A DNA stretch of 24,850 nt from the IMG/VR virus record IMGVR_UViG_2565956726_000010. The stretch is one strand, 5' to 3'. The stretch comes from a virus. Its lineage: Duplodnaviria; Heunggongvirae; Uroviricota; Caudoviricetes. Both the position numbers and the translations under genes were made by a program. The notes beneath the pieces were generated by a model, which made no database searches, was not told the DNA's origin, and was given only the letters and a program-made list of their open reading frames with translations. Positions 1 through 24,850 of this stretch are shown here, in pieces; position 1 is the first letter of the stretch, and each line of letters starts with the position of its first letter.

Positions 1-288
1 TTAACGGATCAACATCCAGATCAGCAGACACGCCACCACCGGCACAGCAAAATCCATCAGGCTTGCCACATCCCACACGCGCGGATCAAAACCGCCCCAC
101 CACGGCATGTTAATCCTCTTGCCATGCCCAAACATTTCAATCCAGCGATATTCTGCCTGGGTGTGTTCACGCGCAATGAAGAACGTACAACCGGCTATCG
201 CACCGTAAGCCCAGTTTCCGGTAAAAAGACCAGCCAGTACCTGCACCGCTACGGCACAAAGCGCATGAAGTATCGACGTGATATCCAT
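1..288 (-). CDS. small integral membrane protein, function unknown (95 aa)
   Basis: ATG at 288..286 preceded by AAGGA Shine-Dalgarno about 6 nt upstream; stop TAA at 3..1, exactly at the window edge; two to three hydrophobic segments (ILHALCAVAVQVLAGLFTG, MDFAVPVVACLLIWMLI); starts 9 nt after the stop of the 298..576 gene, same strand. Confidence 0.45.
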   Translation of the reverse strand: MDITSILHALCAVAVQVLAGLFTGNWAYGAIAGCTFFIAREHTQAEYRWIEMFGHGKRINMPWWGGFDPRVWDVASLMDFAVPVVACLLIWMLIR

Positions 289-297
289 CTGCTATCC

Positions 298-576
298 TTA
301 AAACCACTCCCTGAGCGGGCGCTCTGGTGTAACCACCCACTCACGGAACACGGAATCATCAAATCCATCGTCAAGAAGACGGATATTAACAAAGTACCCT
401 TCGTTTCGCGTGTATTCTGGTTCTCCGTCATCAGAAACATCTGTCTCCCTGAACGTAAAACCAATCTCATCAACCAGAACGGCATTCTGCAGCTCTTCGT
501 CCTCTTCCCAGTTAAGTTTCCTGAGAAATGCCCTGAAATCTGCTTTATCACTGAAACGCAACGTGAAATCTCTCAC
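298..576 (-). CDS. small highly acidic protein, function unknown (92 aa, GTG start)
   Basis: GTG at 576..574 overlaps the stf stop codon (GTGA) and has a strong GGGGAGG Shine-Dalgarno 7 nt upstream; no internal Met; Asp/Glu-rich with few basic residues; occupies the position where lambda carries tfa but has a different size and composition. Confidence 0.45.
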   Translation of the reverse strand: MRDFTLRFSDKADFRAFLRKLNWEEDEELQNAVLVDEIGFTFRETDVSDDGEPEYTRNEGYFVNIRLLDDGFDDSVFREWVVTPERPLREWF

Positions 577-2636
577 TCCACAACCTCCCCAAGCTGCGCA
601 TCTGTTAGCTCTTTATGCCAGAGACGAAAATTCCTCACATGCCCAAATAAATGGCGTAATCCTGCTGTAGTTTGTCCACCAATGCGAATGGTTGCTGTAC
701 TCCGGATATATTCCCATTTGGTTTTAGTTTCGCTGCTTAACTTACCGTTACTGACTACACATGTGGACCGTTCGGACTTTACCCGCATACCAATAAGCAT
801 TTTTTCCAGCCCGGCATTTTCATTTATTCGTCGGTCTGAACCACCTATATCGCAATACGGAAAACCGTCGTACCCACCTGATGAACCAAACCCCATTACG
901 ATCCCCGCATCTGCCTGATGCCGGTATGTGTCAAAAACACGCGGTGCTGCATTTGGCGTTTTATACCAGTTCTTATGTACCTCACAAAGAACCGTAAAAG
1001 GAAGATTATAAAGATTATTCTTAATCGGAACTGTAACCATATCGCTTGCCCGCGTTACCGGTGCCGTCCCCGTAACAATAAAAGATGATGCGCCTGTACC
1101 AGCCTCAATCTGTGGAGTGGTTACATCGAGATAATCCCCTGATGCAACCATCTGCCCTGTATCCGGAGAATACTGGACAAAACCACCAACCGTATTTTCT
1201 GTTGTATCTGCTTTTAATGTAGCCTCAAAAAATATCCAGCCAGTTGCATCATCCTTAACAGACCTTGCTGTAACACGGCTTGTCTGACCTGTCTTGCTAA
1301 TTATGCGGGTGGTAAGGTTCAGGTTTGCTGCTCCTATTGATGTCCTTACCTCCCCATCATAATGTTCAAATAAAATACGAACGGCGATATTATCAACTTC
1401 ACTTTTTACCCGACAGGATATAGTTACATGCTTTTCGTCCCCTGAAGTATCAACCCCTCCGGTACTCGAATACAGTCCGATAATGGTATGCGCTTTACTT
1501 GTACCAACAATCGAATCCTGTACGACAAACCGGCCATAATTAAACCCGAAACTATCTGTGCCTGTTTCTGTAACGTCCAGTGAAGTTGACTTATTCCACT
1601 TCGAAGGGTCTGTACTGTTCTGGAAGAAGTTCGTTCTTTGTCCCTCAATAAGCAGGCCATCACACTCAAATCGTGGCTCATTAATTTCCGCCGTTTTCAG
1701 TTCGCCAGATTTGTTGATATATGTTGCCGTTGATGCGCGACTGAAATTAATCTGTTTATCACTGGCAACCTGAACCACATTATCGCCAATCTTCACTTTT
1801 TTATAACCCGGAGAATAGCCCGTAATCATATCCAGCGAATCATTAAAGGGTATCCACACATCCGGCAGCGGCTGTAAAACATATCTGTACGGCTCTGCTG
1901 TCTGGTTTGCGTATTCTCTGGCAGCATCTTCACTTGCTTTTGCTGCCGTCTGGCTTGCTGCCGATGCTTTCGCCGAGTTCGCCGCCGCTGTTTCGCTCAC
2001 CTTTGCGTTGGCTTCACTGTCTTTGGCATTCGTCTCACTGGTTTTCGCTGCCGTCTGGCTGGATTTTGCGTTTTTTTCGCTGGCCTTTGTGGCTGTCTCG
2101 CTATTTTTCGCGTTGGTTTCTGATTTTTTGGCTGCTGTCGCGGAGTTTGCCGATGCAGTCTGCGAGGCCGCTGCCGCCTGTGCGCTGTTAGCTGCATTCG
2201 TTTCTGAGGTTTTCGCCGCATTCTTCGATGAGGCTGCTGCCGTTTCGGATTTCTTTGCCGCCGCTGCACTCTGTGATGACGCTCCGGCATGACGTGCCAC
2301 TTCATTCACCATCAGCTCAAAACGGCGCAGTGCCTCCGGACGAACATCATCCTCCGTCATGGCGCCGAGAAAATCATTCAGCGTACCTGGTCTGGAACCT
2401 TCATAGACGGTAATGGTCCCGGCATGTGAAGGTGGAAAACCTTCAACCAGCAGGGTGACGCTGTACTGGCCATACTCAACATCCATGCTGTAACGCCCGG
2501 CTTCATCCGGATTTTCAGAGGCCACCGTGTTCACCACCACCGTGCTGCTGGTCCGTCTGGCCTTCAGCACAATGGTGCAGTTCTGTACTGGTTTTCCTGT
2601 GCCATCTTTAAGCACGCCAGAAATTTTTACTGTCAT
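573..2636 (-). CDS. stf: side tail fiber protein (lambda Stf-like N-terminus, Ala/Ser/Thr-rich repeat shaft, non-lambda C-terminal domain)
   Basis: N-terminus MTVKISGVLKDGTGKPVQNCTIVLKA... is near-identical to my recollection of lambda Stf; ATG at 2636..2634; C-terminal ~450 aa unlike lambda and ending in a motif (VRNFRLWHKELTDAQL) resembling the C-terminal signature of LamG/concanavalin-like jellyroll domains. Confidence 0.9.
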   Translation of the reverse strand: MTVKISGVLKDGTGKPVQNCTIVLKARRTSSTVVVNTVASENPDEAGRYSMDVEYGQYSVTLLVEGFPPSHAGTITVYEGSRPGTLNDFLGAMTEDDVRPEALRRFELMVNEVARHAGASSQSAAAAKKSETAAASSKNAAKTSETNAANSAQAAAASQTASANSATAAKKSETNAKNSETATKASEKNAKSSQTAAKTSETNAKDSEANAKVSETAAANSAKASAASQTAAKASEDAAREYANQTAEPYRYVLQPLPDVWIPFNDSLDMITGYSPGYKKVKIGDNVVQVASDKQINFSRASTATYINKSGELKTAEINEPRFECDGLLIEGQRTNFFQNSTDPSKWNKSTSLDVTETGTDSFGFNYGRFVVQDSIVGTSKAHTIIGLYSSTGGVDTSGDEKHVTISCRVKSEVDNIAVRILFEHYDGEVRTSIGAANLNLTTRIISKTGQTSRVTARSVKDDATGWIFFEATLKADTTENTVGGFVQYSPDTGQMVASGDYLDVTTPQIEAGTGASSFIVTGTAPVTRASDMVTVPIKNNLYNLPFTVLCEVHKNWYKTPNAAPRVFDTYRHQADAGIVMGFGSSGGYDGFPYCDIGGSDRRINENAGLEKMLIGMRVKSERSTCVVSNGKLSSETKTKWEYIRSTATIRIGGQTTAGLRHLFGHVRNFRLWHKELTDAQLGEVVE
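1919..2285 (-). repeat. in-frame tandem short repeats encoding an Ala/Ser/Thr/Lys-rich low-complexity shaft inside stf
   Basis: Protein residues ~118-240 are iterations of units like AAKTSETNA / AKKSETNAKNSE; the DNA shows repeated gcttctgaaac / gccgctgc-type units; spurious ORFs appear in several frames on both strands here. Confidence 0.6.
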
Positions 2637-2649
2637 ACTTTTCCACCAA

Positions 2650-2683
2650 TAAAAAAAGCCCGCAGCAGTGACGCCACGGGCTT
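2650..2683 (-). terminator. putative intrinsic terminator between lom and stf
   Basis: Minus strand reads AAGCCCG-(14 nt loop)-CGGGCTT followed by TTTTTTT, about 100 nt downstream of the lom stop and just upstream of the stf start. Confidence 0.4.
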
Positions 2684-2787
2684 CAGGACAGTGTAACTTT
2701 ACGTTTCCTCAAACGCAGTTCACCCCATAAGGCGGATGAACCTGCGTATCATAACAATATTTACAGAAGATAAATCGGCGTCTGTTG

Positions 2788-3387
2788 TCAGAAACGGTAT
2801 CCGATACCAACAATAAATGCATCCGTTCGCCAGTCGCCACTGCCGGAGCCTTCATAAGCAATATCAATGGCCACGGATTCGGTCGGGTTAAACTGCACGC
2901 CAGCTCCCCACGCCAGAGAGGTATTGCTGTGGCGACCGTCATCACTTCCGGTCAGCACGTCGTGCGTTTTCCCCTTGTTGTCAGTTACGCGGAGATAATC
3001 CCCGGAGAAAGTCGACACACGGCTGTAAGCCACACCCGCGATCGCATACGCGCTGAACCATTCATTCACGCGCACAGACGGCCCCGCCATCACGCTGAAC
3101 CAGCGGTTACGCACGGAATCTTCATGCCAGCGGGTATCGCTGTAATGCGTTTTTTGCTCATCTTTGGCATTGGCATAACTGAATGACGTCACCAGCCCCA
3201 GCGTGTCCGTAAATTCATAACGGTATTTCACGTTAATGCCCTTCAGGTCATCGCTGCCTGGCATATCAGTATGGGTCTGAAGATACCCGGCGCTTAGTGT
3301 GGACTGATGCTCTGCTGCGCTCGCTGGCGTACCAGCGGCGACCAGCCAGACTACTGTGGACAGAATAACAGCACATAATTTACGCAT
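2788..3387 (-). CDS. lom: Lom outer membrane protein (Ail/Lom/PagC family beta-barrel)
   Basis: 199 aa with N-terminal signal peptide (MRKLCAVILSTVVWLVAAGTPASA), C-terminal aromatic terminus (...GIGYRF) typical of OM beta-barrels; same position as lambda lom between J and stf; ATG at 3387..3385. Confidence 0.9.
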   Translation of the reverse strand: MRKLCAVILSTVVWLVAAGTPASAAEHQSTLSAGYLQTHTDMPGSDDLKGINVKYRYEFTDTLGLVTSFSYANAKDEQKTHYSDTRWHEDSVRNRWFSVMAGPSVRVNEWFSAYAIAGVAYSRVSTFSGDYLRVTDNKGKTHDVLTGSDDGRHSNTSLAWGAGVQFNPTESVAIDIAYEGSGSGDWRTDAFIVGIGYRF

Positions 3388-3409
3388 AATTACCTCTCGC
3401 TTTTCTGCA

Positions 3410-3437
3410 ATAAAAAAGGCGCCATTTCTGGCGCCCG
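3410..3437 (-). terminator. putative intrinsic terminator after J (lambda tJ-like)
   Basis: Minus strand GGCGCC-AGAAAT-GGCGCC followed by TTTTTTATTG, between the J stop and the lom Shine-Dalgarno. Confidence 0.55.
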
Positions 3438-3454
3438 TATTGGGGTTATAAAAT

Positions 3455-6400
3455 TCAGCTAATCGTGATGCCTGCAGTGGCTTTCTTCATCACAACAACC
3501 AGCAAATCGCTGATACTTGCTGTGGGATACCAGCCATTTACCCACCATGCTGATACAGAAAACTCCAGCGTCATGTCGCCGCGACCAGCAGGCATATCAA
3601 TAACACCACTGTAAACCAGCGTATTATCCATCGCGGTACGGTTATAAATTTCAGCACCGTTTTTCTTCACTATCAGGCGGCATGACGAATAAGTATCGCT
3701 GTTCTCCCGCTCATGTCTGGCACCGCTGAAAGCCACCGCCGGAATAACAATCTGCCGGTTAAACGGCTGATCGTCATAAACCCTGACGGTAATGGTTCCT
3801 GATGGCCAACGCTTCGGTGCACGGGAGTCACGAGGGAAAGCCTTACCCACTGTTTTAACGAGATCGCCTTCAATCTGGTTTGCAGACAGTTTCCCTCTGA
3901 TGACACAGTTCTCGTTAATGGTGACATTATTGAGCGTGCCGGTATTCGCCGTGATGGCTCCACTGATATCCGCATTGCGGGCTGTCAGCCTGCCATCCGG
4001 CGTCAGGGAAAACGTCGGAGGATTGCCGGATGACGTGATGCTCACCGCAAACAGTCGCTTCAGGAACACGTCGTTCATGAACAGCTGATTCCCCTGCGCC
4101 ACAAACAGCGGCGTGGTGTTGCCGTTCTCCGGGGTAATCATCGCAATGCGATCGGCCTGCAGCAGAATGTTACTCAGGGTCTGACCATCAACATCCTCAA
4201 TCCCCGCACCAATCCCGGCCACATAGGGAATACCGTTTTTTGTTTTCTGCACCTTCAGCATATACATGGCATTCAGCTCATTGCGCGTGTCTGACTGAAC
4301 CCGCTGGATTTGCTGTATGGTCACGGCCTGGTCACCCAGCTTTTTATCCGTGGTCGAGGTAATTTCACTCCCTTTTTTATCCACGTACTGGCGGACCTGT
4401 GCTATCTGTCGGGCGTTTTCTGACTGCCCCTGGCTGACAGTCTGTGAGATTTCACTGCTCACCCGGTCCACTTTCTGGCTCACCTGCGCGATGGCCAGTG
4501 TCTGATCCTCATTCTTTTTCGCAACCAGCTGCGTGAGGCTGTTTTCCGCCTTCCCGATTTTCCGGGTCACTTCTGCGATATCCGTGTCCATCCGCTGACG
4601 GATATCTTCTTCCAGTTGCGTGACCTCCGTACGCAGCGCTGAAGCATCAATGCGCTCTTTCAGTGCCTGACCCAGAAGCGTCTCATCTATCAGCCCCCGG
4701 AAAATTTCCAGATACCCTTCACCATCATTGCTGGGCTGCCCGCTGGCTTCCACAAAAGCAGATTTTCCCACCAGGTTGACGCTTCGCACGTAAAACCAGA
4801 AATCCGTCCCCGGCTTAATCCGGCTCCCCTGGACAGTCCACTGACTGCCGGTCCCCAGATAACGGGCAGATTTTTCCACCTGTGCTGTGTTCGTGATGCG
4901 TTTTTCTGAGAACCAGAATTCAAACTGTACCGTCGGGTCATACACCGCAAGACGCGGGACCGCCGTTATCTGAAAATACCCCGGCGTCAGCTCAATGGTG
5001 GCGGGTTTTGCAGGTGCGTTAATCCGGAACGATACCGACGCCGGATCGCCCTGCTGTCCCCGGGCATTTACCGCCCGGACCGTCAGCGTGTAACGCCCCA
5101 GCGCCAGCTGCCTGAAGCGGTAAGTGGTTTCCGCCGTCCGGGCCGTGCTGACCAGCCGCTCACTGCCGTCATCCGCTGTTACGGTCAGACGGAGCAGGAA
5201 GCTCACGCCCTTCACCACCTTCGGCGTGTCCCAGCGCGCCAGCACCTGATATTCCCCGCTGTCTGCGGTGACTTCGGCGGTCAGGTGCTGCACCGCTGGC
5301 GGCGTGACACCATTCACCGTGCCGCTCTGGTCGCCGTCAAAGTGCGCTCCGTTATCCACGATGGCCTCTTTTTCCGGTACATGCTGCACGGCGGTGATGG
5401 CATACGCACCGTCATCGTTCTCCCGGATACTCACACAGCGGAACAGGCGCTGGCGCAGCGTCGGCAGCTTCAGCCCCCACACGCTGTATTCGGCAACGCC
5501 GTCAGGAATACGGCTCACTTTCACCTTCACGCCGTCGGTGACGGACTGGACCTCCACGCTGACCGGATTCCCACTTCCGTCAACCAGGCTTATCAGCGTG
5601 GTGCCGGAGGATGACAGCATGATTTCACGGTCGAGCGTCAGCGTCCGGGTCTGGCTGTTCACCGCCAGCACGCGCCCGCCGGTGCTGATACCGGCATAGT
5701 CATCATCACAGATTTCAATGACATCGCCCGGAACATGGCGAAGCCCTTCTGCGCCGACGCTGAAGTCCACGGTCTGCGTTTCCAGCAGTTCTGTTTTAAT
5801 CAGCCACAGCCCGGCGCGGTGTGCCTGCCCCCGGCTGGTACAGCCAAAGGCATCCATCTTCGTGACGTTACGACCGTAACGGGCAATGGCCTGCGTGTCC
5901 TCCACAAGCTCTGTTGCCGTCTCCCAGCCGTTATCCGGGTCAATCCAGTTCACCTCAACGGCATTATGGCGGTCCTTCAGGGCGCTGAAGCTGTAGCGGA
6001 ACGGCGCGCCATCATCCGGCATCACCACATTACTGCGGTTATAGGTCCACACCTTATCCGACGGTCGGTCCTGCACGAACGTCAGCGTCTGCCCGTTCCA
6101 TACCGGCATACAGCGCATCGCCGAGCAAAAATCACTGAGCACATCCCACGCCTTGCGCTGTGTGGTCAGGTACGCATTACAGGTGATGCGCGGCTCCGTG
6201 CCGCCAAAGCCGTCCGGCACTGACTGGTCGCAGTACTGGCCGATGACATACAGCGCCCATTTATCCACATCCGCTGCACCAAGACGTTTCCCCATGCCGT
6301 AGCGCGGATGGGTCAGCATATCCCACAGACACCAGGCCATGTTGTTGCTGTATGCCGGTTTAAACGTTCCGTCCCAGATACCGCTGTATTGCCGCGTCTG

Positions 6401-7153
6401 CGGGTTATAATTCGACGGCACCTGCAGAATACGCCCGCGCAGATGATAATTACGGCTCACCTGCTGGCTGCCGAACTGTTCCGAGTCCACCTGTACGCCG
6501 ACCAGTGCCGTGTTCGGGTAGCACTGTTTCACATCGATGATTTCGGTGTATGACGACCAGAGCGTTTTGTTCTGCAGCTGGTCTGTGGTGCTGTCCGGCG
6601 TCATCCTGCGCATCCGGATATTGAACGGGCGCGGCGGCAGGTTATCCACCACCACCGAGGCCAGATACTGCGAGGTGGTTTTGCCTTTAATGGTGATGTC
6701 TTTTTCCGTCACCCAGCCACCATTACGCTGTATCTGAACCAGCAGGCGGACTTCCGACGGATTCCGGTCACCCTTTGAGGTGGTTTCCACCAGTGCCTGC
6801 ACACCGAAGGTAAAGCGCAGACGGTCGATGTTTGCCGACGTGATGGTGCGGGTGATCGGCGTGTCATATTTCACTTCTGTACCGAGCACCGTCTCGGAGC
6901 CGGAGGATTCAAAACCTTCCGGCGGTGTCTGCTCCTGCTCACCTGCCCGGAACACCACCGTGACGCCGGAGATGTTGGTATTCCCCTCACTGTCCAGCAC
7001 CGGCGTACTGTTCAGCAGCACGCTTTTTAATCCATCCACCGGACCTTCAATCGGCCCTTCGCTGATGGCATCAATCACACTCAGCAGTTGCGTGGACTTC
7101 AGGTTGTCCTTCGCTTCGCGCGGGGTATGCCCCTTACTGCTTCCTTTGCCCAT
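3455..7153 (-). CDS. J: tail tip / host specificity protein J (central fiber)
   Basis: 1232 aa; N-terminus [54 protein letters not shown] matches lambda J as I recall it; about 100 aa longer than lambda J (1132 aa) with an extra coiled-coil-like segment and a divergent C-terminal ~150 aa. Confidence 0.95.
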
Positions 7154-21389: not shown

Positions 21390-21740
21390 TCAATTGATGC
21401 GTTCGCGCGCTGTTTTTGCTTTATGACAGGGCCAGCACAGACTCTGCAGGTTACTGTCTGCATCTGTGCCACCATGAGCTTTCGGAATGATGTGGTCCAC
21501 AGTTCTGGCTTCAACGGCTCTCCCATTGCGCAGGCAGTTCTGACACAGATGATTATCACGCTTCAGTATGCGCGCACGTATGGCATCCCATTTCGAGCCA
21601 TAGCCACGCTGGTGGCGGCTCAGTCCGCGTTGATGCTGTACCCATCCTTCGCCACGATGTTTATCGCAGTAACCAGAACTGTCTGTGGTTGTACCTGCAC
21701 ATCCACGCTTACGGCAGGCGCGTGGGATTAGTGCTGGCAT
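21390..21740 (-). CDS. HNH endonuclease (terminase-associated)
   Basis: 116 aa with Cys pairs and the HNH core (CQNCLRNGR...VDHIIPKAHGGTDADSNLQSLCWPCHKAK); positioned just upstream of cos/terS as in HK97 gp74. Confidence 0.85.
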   Translation of the reverse strand: MPALIPRACRKRGCAGTTTDSSGYCDKHRGEGWVQHQRGLSRHQRGYGSKWDAIRARILKRDNHLCQNCLRNGRAVEARTVDHIIPKAHGGTDADSNLQSLCWPCHKAKTARERIN

Positions 21741-21878: not shown

Positions 21879-22418
21879 ATGGATATTAAAGATAAAATCA
21901 ATACCATTTTGTTATGTGACATTGCCATCCACCTAGGTATCGAAACTGATATTGATCCACAGCTTGTTAAATATGCTGTGTCATCTGGTAATGATTGGGT
22001 TATCAAGGCCGAATATTCACATTTGGATGTTGACGAACCAAGTAAAGAAGATCGTGATTTTGTTACTGCTGTCTTGAATATGTATCGCGGACTTTCCAAT
22101 GCTTTCAGGAAACTTAGTGATGACGAGCAAAAAGAATTAGTCCGTGACCATCATCTAAAAATACATGATGGGGCAATTCAGCTCCCAGGTTTCGACGGTA
22201 ATAATGAATGCGATTACTTCAGTATCATTGAGGCATATCAGAAAATTGATCGCTTCCCCGAACAGAAACAGCCCATTGCCAATACTCATTCACGTACAGA
22301 ACATCTCTATAACGCAATGCTTGATGAGTTTAAGAAAATTGACGCTGTAAATCGAAGCTGGGATTTATCGAAGGAAGAACTGGCATCCATTCTTTCCACA
22401 GCTCCACGCAGTTTCTAA
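21879..22418 (+). CDS. YfbU-family (UPF0304)-like protein, 179 aa; moron on the opposite strand to the phage late operon
   Basis: ATG 21879 with AGAGG Shine-Dalgarno ~8 nt upstream; AT-rich coding sequence; by-eye alignment to my recollection of E. coli YfbU across four blocks ([24 protein letters not shown] ~ [34 protein letters not shown] ~ [29 protein letters not shown] ~ [29 protein letters not shown] ~ LSANEINQII); followed by a hairpin terminator. Confidence 0.6.
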   Translation: [179 protein letters not shown]

Positions 22419-24284: not shown

Positions 24285-24850
24285 TGGATTTGCCCCTATA
24301 TTTCCAGACACCTGTTATCACTTAACCCATTACTGGCTTGCTGCCGTAGATATTCCCGTGGCGAGCGATAACCCAGTGCACTATGCGGATGCCATTCGTT
24401 ATAATGCTCGAACGCCTCTGCAAGGTTCTTTGCTGCCGTTAACCCGTCTGGTTTGGGCATGACACTGATGTAGTCACGCTTTATCGTTTTCACGAAGCTC
24501 TCTGCTATGCCGTTACTCTCCGGACTCCGCACCGCCGTGCTCTTCGGTTCAAGCCCCAACATCCGGGCAAACTGCCGTGTTTCATTAGCCCGGTAGCATG
24601 AACCATTATCCGTCAGCCACTCTACTGGAGACGCCGGAAGCTCGTTGCCGAAGCGGCGTTCCACCGCTCCCAGCATGACGTCCTGTACTGTTTCACTGTT
24701 GAAGCCGCCCGTAGTGACCGCCCAGTGCAGTGCCTCACGGTCACAGCAGTCCAGCGCGAACGTGACTCGCAGTTTTTCTCCGTTATCACAGCGGAACTCG
24801 AACCCGTCAGAGCACCATCGCTGATTACTTTCTTTCACAGCCACTCTGCC
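24285..24850 (-). mobile_element. IS2 insertion sequence, right-end portion (element continues beyond the window)
   Basis: Terminal sequence tggatttgcccctatatttccagaca at 24285..24310 matches the IS2 right inverted repeat as I recall it; the adjacent ORF translates to the C-terminal part of IS2 transposase InsD. Confidence 0.9.
24296..24850 (-). CDS. insD: IS2 transposase InsD (orfB, DDE integrase core), 5'-truncated by the window edge
   Basis: Translation ...[66 protein letters not shown]...[36 protein letters not shown] is near-identical to my recollection of IS2 InsD; the first codon in the window is GTG (Val), not a true start. Confidence 0.9.

Follow-up and report, generated by a model that had tools for sequence, protein, structure and literature searches.

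The open reading frame (ORF) at positions 573-2636 on the minus strand of the viral DNA IMGVR_UViG_2565956726_000010 starts with ATG in the ORF list and encodes a protein of 687 amino acids (aa). It is almost certain that this product is a side tail fiber (Stf) of the lambda type, built from an StfN anchor, a heptad-repeat stalk, a conserved neck, and a head of two jelly-roll domains. It is also probable, when the whole statement including glycan binding is considered, that this is a side tail fiber in which a coiled-coil stalk carries a lectin-like head that binds a surface glycan. The window is the complete stretch of 24,850 nucleotides that was analyzed. The initial annotation of this gene, made from the letters alone, had proposed a chimera of a lambda Stf anchor, a repeat shaft, and a LamG-like distal domain that would bind carbohydrate, and this interpretation is supported in substance, with the refinements given below.

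Domain architecture of the fiber

The first 94 residues of the fiber (2355-2636, minus strand) form the StfN collar or anchor domain, which fixes the fiber to the tail. The Pfam family PF08400 (phage_tail_N) matches aa 1-131 with an E of 2.2e-68 and 228.9 bits versus a cutoff of 26.6, and the solved N-domain of the lambda tail fiber, 9e7m, matches aa 1-94 (E 2.5e-48). Over aa 1-158 the protein is 74% identical to lambda orf-401 and, therefore, the lambda-like part is somewhat longer than the first 110 or so residues to which it had been assigned, although the assignment itself was correct. In the cryo-electron microscopy structure of Ur-lambda, residues 1-91 of StfN form a dodecameric collar of 12 subunits that holds four trimeric fibers, and StfN is followed by a linker and then by a long proximal coiled coil (PMC12617516).

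A linker and a stalk rich in Ala, Ser, Lys, and Glu occupy aa 95-253 of the fiber (1878-2354, minus strand). The stalk (from aa ~100 to 253) consists of 31% Ala and 15% Ser, and has a period of 7 for Ala and hydrophobic residues (z = 9-11) and of 3.5 for Lys and Glu (z = 11), in both cases versus 500 shuffles. No tandem repeat was found by TRF in the DNA that codes for the stalk. The low-complexity repeat shaft noticed initially is real, and the presence of a heptad signal in the protein with no tandem repeat in the DNA means that it is a coiled-coil-type stalk, lambda-like in kind. Indeed, SETNAK-type repeats like those of the stalk are also found in lambda Stf and in Gp22 of the T5-like phage IrisVonRoten. 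Judged from its sequence, the stalk is presumed to be a trimeric coiled coil.

Stalk and head are separated by a conserved neck at aa 254-296 (1749-1877, minus strand), with the sequence QPLPDVWIPFNDSLDM…, in which the residues P, D, W, P, and L are nearly invariant in the alignment of 52 homologues. This segment is 63-98% identical even in the fibers of T5-like phages and Dhillonvirus. From QPLPDVWIPF (aa ~254) onwards, the C-terminal ~434 aa have no detectable similarity to the distal part of lambda Stf, orf-314 (best E 1.0), in agreement with the proposal of a C-terminal region of ~450 aa unrelated to the gp37-like tip of lambda. The profile and structure searches likewise found LamG/ConA-like folds (ConA, concanavalin A) and no gp37-like tip.

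The search for relatives of the head gave 3213 matches at E <= 1e-3 among 1.84 billion cluster representatives, of which 51 were used in the alignment for AlphaFold2 (AF2). Among the matches listed, the head module is the extreme C-terminus in nearly all full-length relatives, with N-terminal parts that vary widely in length. The AF2 model of the head, which is that of a monomer, is all-beta and has a pLDDT of 92.9 and a pTM of 0.88; the head is made of two beta-sandwich jelly rolls, D1 and D2, that form a self-contained globular unit. In the structure search, this model matches lectin, carbohydrate-binding module (CBM), pentraxin, and LamG folds, including Hc-N domains of botulinum neurotoxin (BoNT), pentraxins, and sialic-acid-binding modules of CBM40, all of which are ConA-like jelly rolls; the matches are not assigned to D1 or D2, but D1 must take part in any alignment that exceeds ~140 residues. 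The family profile of the head also touches pentraxins and the Hc domains of botulinum toxin. With Foldseek against viral models, the entire two-domain head was found in the Dhillonvirus 'rolling' (TMq 0.95) and also, with a TMq of 0.6-0.7, in many proteins of uncultured phages that bear the label 'Concanavalin A-like lectin/glucanases superfamily'. To our knowledge, there is no universal binding-site motif in the ConA-like lectin/glucanase superfamily.

The larger domain, D1 (aa 297-545; 1002-1748, minus strand), folds as a ConA-like jelly roll and is a member of the 'GTA/phage head spike fiber' family, NCBIfam NF048003 (GTA_spike_fiber), which it matches with an E of 4.2e-19 and 69.8 bits versus a curated cutoff of 36, with aa 329-530 covering positions 1-181 of the 182 in the profile. 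The family profile of the head finds Rcc01080 (GhsB) of the gene transfer agent RcGTA with an E of 1.2e-39 (6.5e-4 with the single sequence), where only D1 matches, and the baseplate proteins Pa193 gp46 and E217 gp45 at ~1e-15. Rcc01080 shares with D1 the NF048003 family and a beta-rich lectin-like domain at the free tip of an appendage, but it is a single chain on the pentamers of the capsid vertices and not a trimeric tail fiber, and it is only a distant relative. In Pa193 gp46 and E217 gp45 the domain is not a fiber tip, but sits as a decoration on a baseplate protein of a myovirus to which the tail fibers are anchored.

The second domain, D2 (aa 546-687; 576-1001, minus strand), is a LamG/ConA-like jelly roll that ends in the motif RHLFGHxRNFRxWHxxLTDxQ. 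This terminal motif (…LRHLFGHVRNFRLWHKELTDAQL) aligns to the last third of Pfam PF13385 (Laminin_G_3), at profile positions 98-149 of 151, and Laminin_G_3 matches 33 of the 52 aligned homologues at E <= 0.01 (best E 1.9e-11). The beta-sandwich jelly roll of the Laminin_G_3/ConA-like superfamily is present. The LamG-like distal domain of the initial annotation therefore corresponds to the last ~140 aa of a head that has two jelly rolls, the larger of which belongs to another family.

The fiber has no Pfam match to PF13884, the autocleaving intramolecular chaperone, at E <= 1. This domain has been described at the C-terminus of LtfA and LtfB of phage DT57C (PMC4728585), and T5 pb1 has it as well. 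LtfA and LtfB were considered as the closest model but, because the domain is absent here, these two proteins were rejected as homologues of the head, and only the idea of a branched fiber carries over. Two further candidates were set aside: the lambda-STF chimera of Eligo (preprint) has a P2 tip and is not relevant to this head, and Stf of Gifsy-1, which binds Gal II of the lipopolysaccharide core, is a Stf of the Ur-lambda type that does not carry this head.

Partner gene and mosaicism of the head

The fiber gene is followed by a gene for a protein of 92 aa (298-576, minus strand), the start of which overlaps the stop of the fiber gene (ATGA). The product falls in phrog_1361 and is 46% identical to Gp23 of IrisVonRoten. 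The gene is present in 191 phage records, directly after the fiber gene in nearly all rows among the matches listed, and follows it in each of the ten loci that were inspected in lambdoid, Dhillonvirus, rV5-like, and T5-like genomes. The 92-aa protein has no similarity to lambda Tfa/orf-194, and the position of lambda tfa is thus held by an unrelated gene. Neither this ORF nor the ORF of 95 aa that follows it has a Pfam or NCBIfam match, and the structure prediction of the 92-aa protein rested on an alignment of 20 sequences. Most simply, the 92-aa protein is a candidate for a dedicated assembly factor (chaperone) or an adaptor of the head.

The comparison with Ur-lambda Stf shows what is common and what was replaced. 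The two share the position after J and lom, the StfN collar, a proximal stalk rich in Ala and Ser with heptad periodicity, and the role of an accessory adsorption fiber. By contrast, the stalk of the fiber in the window is about half as long, there is no gp37-like tip of the kind that binds OmpC, and tfa has given way to the unrelated 92-aa gene. Phage 21 and the Escherichia phage PhiR49_2 share with the window both the overall architecture and a three-gene tail end composed of the fiber gene, the 92-aa gene, and a gene for a small membrane protein.

Heads with 36-64% protein identity to that of the window are found on fibers of T5-like, Dhillonvirus, JenP1-like, rV5-like myovirus, and other lambdoid phages, including phage 21, and 80% or more of the head is contained in 204 phage records. 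Among the records with heads 58-64% identical are some labelled as Campylobacter or Listeria phages, such as 'Campylobacter phage C13' (MG065692.1) and 'Listeria phage LM 4-14-1' (OR849447.1), which contain coliphage-type fibers; the genome sizes are typical of T5-like or rV5-like coliphages, and these records are probably mislabelled or contaminant. The domain shuffling that had been proposed is confirmed, since this anchor is also joined to other tips, and this tip is found in turn on fibers of T5-like, Dhillonvirus, and rV5-like phages and of a phage-plasmid.

The phage PhiR41_1 (PV340561.1) shares positions 47-2025 of the window at 96.9% DNA identity and has a different N-terminal part. 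This circular record of 108 kb, which encodes ParA and is apparently a phage-plasmid, contains the same head and both small genes, with the fiber gene split into two coding sequences. Many lambdoid phages share only positions from ~2013/2064 to 3500 of the window. The phage matches thus break at 2013-2064 and at 2025 and, therefore, the breakpoints lie close together within the repetitive stalk, at codons ~191-208.

Within the head, variation is concentrated in the core of D1 (aa 341-505; 1122-1616, minus strand), which has high column entropy and is a likely specificity cassette. The fiber of Escherichia coli VR50, at 1501-3564 of the VR50 locus L009, has 687 aa as well. It is identical to the fiber of the window in 99% of the stalk, 98% of the neck, and 100% of the terminal motif, versus only 44% of the D1 core, and the segments that flank this core are 72-100% identical. 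At the level of sequence, this is a clean natural cassette swap within one domain. Hundreds of E. coli genomes match, at the DNA level, the neck and the D1 frame only, or D2 only, without the D1 core. In five of six comparisons, no part of the head is conserved less than the D1 core (30-47%), the exception being phage 21, where the D2 core (34%) is less conserved than the D1 core (47%). The low conservation of the D1 core in these five comparisons and its swap in VR50 mean that the middle domain, and not the LamG-like end, is the likely determinant of specificity. The shuffling at the receptor-binding end had been recognized correctly, but the segment that varies most is placed in D1 and not in the LamG-like end. 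Given that phage 21 differs mainly in the cores of D1 and D2, its specificity is presumably different.

Proposed ligand of the head and alternative functions

From the fold, the homology, and the position of the head, we infer that its receptor would be a carbohydrate rather than a protein. The points that suggest this are the lectin/CBM-type fold, the kinship of D1 with Rcc01080, the distal position on the fiber, the hypervariability of the D1 core, and the role of lateral fibers. The binding of Rcc01080 to cells depends on the capsule (PMC10218006), and it is the general view that the O-antigen is the target of the lateral fibers in these siphoviruses (PMC8594841). Furthermore, on the basis of AlphaFold models, the C-terminus of IrisVonRoten Gp22 was termed a 'galectin-like domain' and proposed to be a possible extra receptor-binding domain (PMC11990801).

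In the mechanism that is proposed here, trimerization of the stalk would lead each fiber to present three heads, with a weak and reversible affinity for the surface glycan, be it O-antigen, capsule, or another polysaccharide. Virions would thereby accumulate on the cell and cross the glycan layer more easily before J binds to its outer-membrane receptor, with the variable core of D1 mainly setting the specificity. The head and the 92-aa gene act together as a mobile cassette that is swapped between temperate and virulent coliphages by recombination in the repetitive DNA that codes for the stalk and in the conserved segments of the neck and frame.

Several observations weigh against this interpretation. 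The AF2 model is that of a monomer, and the trimer and the arrangement of the heads are presumed. In the fiber of the window the match to Laminin_G_3 is below threshold (E 0.0037, 17.9 bits versus a gathering score of 27.6). Proteins and lipids, too, are among the ligands of the LamG, pentraxin, and BoNT-Hc folds. Finally, the targeting of O16 by IrisVonRoten has been assigned to the T-shaped Gp24, with Gp22 as the proximal fiber (PMC11990801). If Gp24 carries the O16 specificity and Gp22 is proximal, the head could be mainly a docking platform.

A further reading of the fiber is possible, but we regard it as tentative. This is a collectin-like adhesin, in place of a classical interdigitated trimeric tip, in which a trimeric stalk would carry three heads that fold independently as monomers, each with two lectin-type jelly rolls, and in which the 92-aa protein would act as capper or assembler. 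If this were the case, each fiber would have six putative binding domains and each virion about 24. The 92-aa partner, which has no recognizable fold relatives, would then represent a new class of fiber-tip chaperone or adaptor, and may double in T5-like phages as the joint for a second fiber.

The explanation that the head is mainly a platform for docking or branching, such that the head itself or the 92-aa protein holds a second fiber as in the branched lateral fibers of T5-like phages, is unlikely, even though it is the alternative that survives best. IrisVonRoten Gp22 has a homologous neck and two-domain head, with 54% identity over aa 127-686, and Gp23 is homologous to the 92-aa partner; in IrisVonRoten and in HMD-P3 a second fiber gene lies behind the homologous fiber gene and its small partner. 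Gp22 has been described as the proximal fiber to which the T-shaped Gp24 attaches (PMC11990801), and the strong conservation of the neck and frame segments is what would be expected of a docking platform. Gp22 has an N-terminal anchor of the T5 type and not StfN. Against the docking platform, no second fiber gene comes after the cassette in the window, PhiR49_2, phage 21, VR50, or the Dhillonvirus 'rolling'. In the window, the downstream second fiber that characterizes the branched systems (LtfA/LtfB; Gp22/Gp24) is absent, and the 92-aa gene is followed only by the membrane-like ORF of 95 aa. The hypervariable core of D1 fits a host ligand that evolves better than a fixed partner of the phage, and binding to the cell is the task of the homologous domain itself in RcGTA (PMC10218006).

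Binding to a protein receptor and enzymatic activity are both less likely than glycan binding. That the head recognizes an outer-membrane protein instead of a glycan is somewhat more doubtful than the docking platform: in its favor, there are protein binders among the LamG/LNS, pentraxin, and BoNT-Hc folds, and lambda Stf targets OmpC (PMC12617516). An enzyme of the ConA-like 'lectin/glucanase' superfamily, i.e., a glycanase or lyase that degrades O-antigen or capsule in the manner of a tailspike, is very improbable, since no enzyme family was matched in the Pfam and NCBIfam profile searches.

Genomic setting, distribution, and significance

The genes J, lom, and fiber follow one another in this order on the minus strand, which places the fiber gene downstream of J and lom as in a lambda-type Stf. 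J, the central tail fiber or host-specificity protein (3455-7153, minus strand), is an ORF of 1232 aa annotated as J in the 98%-identical PhiR49_2; it is ~100 residues longer than lambda J, which has 1132 aa by its annotated coordinates. The upstream neighbor of the fiber gene is lom (2788-3387, minus strand), an outer-membrane protein gene of the Ail/Lom family (Pfam PF06316 Ail_Lom, E 2.4e-127). PhiR49_2 and VR50 are annotated with the order J, lom, and fiber as well, and in phage 21 the fiber gene comes directly after J, with no lom annotated. The ORF that follows the cassette in the lambda-like versions (1-288, minus strand) encodes a small hydrophobic protein of 95 aa (phrog_1443, E 4.6e-57), the phage 21 homologue of which is annotated as a membrane protein with two transmembrane domains. 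This gene could be a moron or serve in exclusion.

The remaining window contains, on the same strand, a late operon with HK97-type capsid and terminase genes, a tape-measure protein of the HK97/lambda type, and lysis genes. The combination of HK97-like head genes with lambda-like tail genes means that the setting is a lambdoid prophage. Two other ORFs were observed in this region. The first (21879-22418, plus strand) encodes 179 aa in the opposite orientation with a YfbU domain (E 6.5e-12), and lies between an HNH endonuclease gene (21390-21740) and Rz in a stretch of low GC content (~44% at 21.5-23 kb); it looks like an inserted moron. The second (24296-24844, minus strand) has the integrase-core domains rve and rve_3 of an insertion sequence (IS) transposase and adjoins DUF1327 at the edge of the window; an IS has thus presumably inserted into the part of the prophage that serves lysis and late regulation.

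The first 3.5 kb of the window are 98.2% identical in DNA to PhiR49_2, where the gene is annotated as 'side tail fiber protein', and the DNA of the fiber gene is 99.7-99.8% identical in many complete genomes of E. coli. At least 80% of the fiber gene is found in 290 of 5426 E. coli genomes, and 4799 of them match some part of it. The head is carried by ~296 E. coli genomes and matched in part by ~900. Heads that are 100% identical are on record from many E. coli isolates, and identical proteins are found in hundreds of E. coli genomes; although serotypes are seldom given in the record names, the sources name strains of O25b:H4-ST131 and O18:H1. As a whole, the protein belongs to PHROG 1419, its relatives are named 'phage head spike fiber domain-containing protein' in RefSeq, and identical entries are named 'prophage tail fiber N-terminal domain-containing protein'. 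The fiber is a common and already catalogued tail-fiber allele, and the mosaicism of tail fibers with lectin-like tips is well established. Given that the tip is a common module catalogued as PHROG 1419, this is not an unusual chimera. What is modestly new is the dissection of the head into two domains, the cassette in the D1 core, the obligatory 92-aa partner, and the possibility of independent, collectin-like heads.

The tips of side fibers help decide which strains of E. coli are reached by a temperate phage or by a delivery particle based on lambda, and the allele described here is common in lineages of extraintestinal pathogenic E. coli. The joints in the stalk at codons ~191-208, the conserved neck, and the discrete core of D1 at aa 341-505 offer swap points for engineering, where the 92-aa gene probably must travel with the head.

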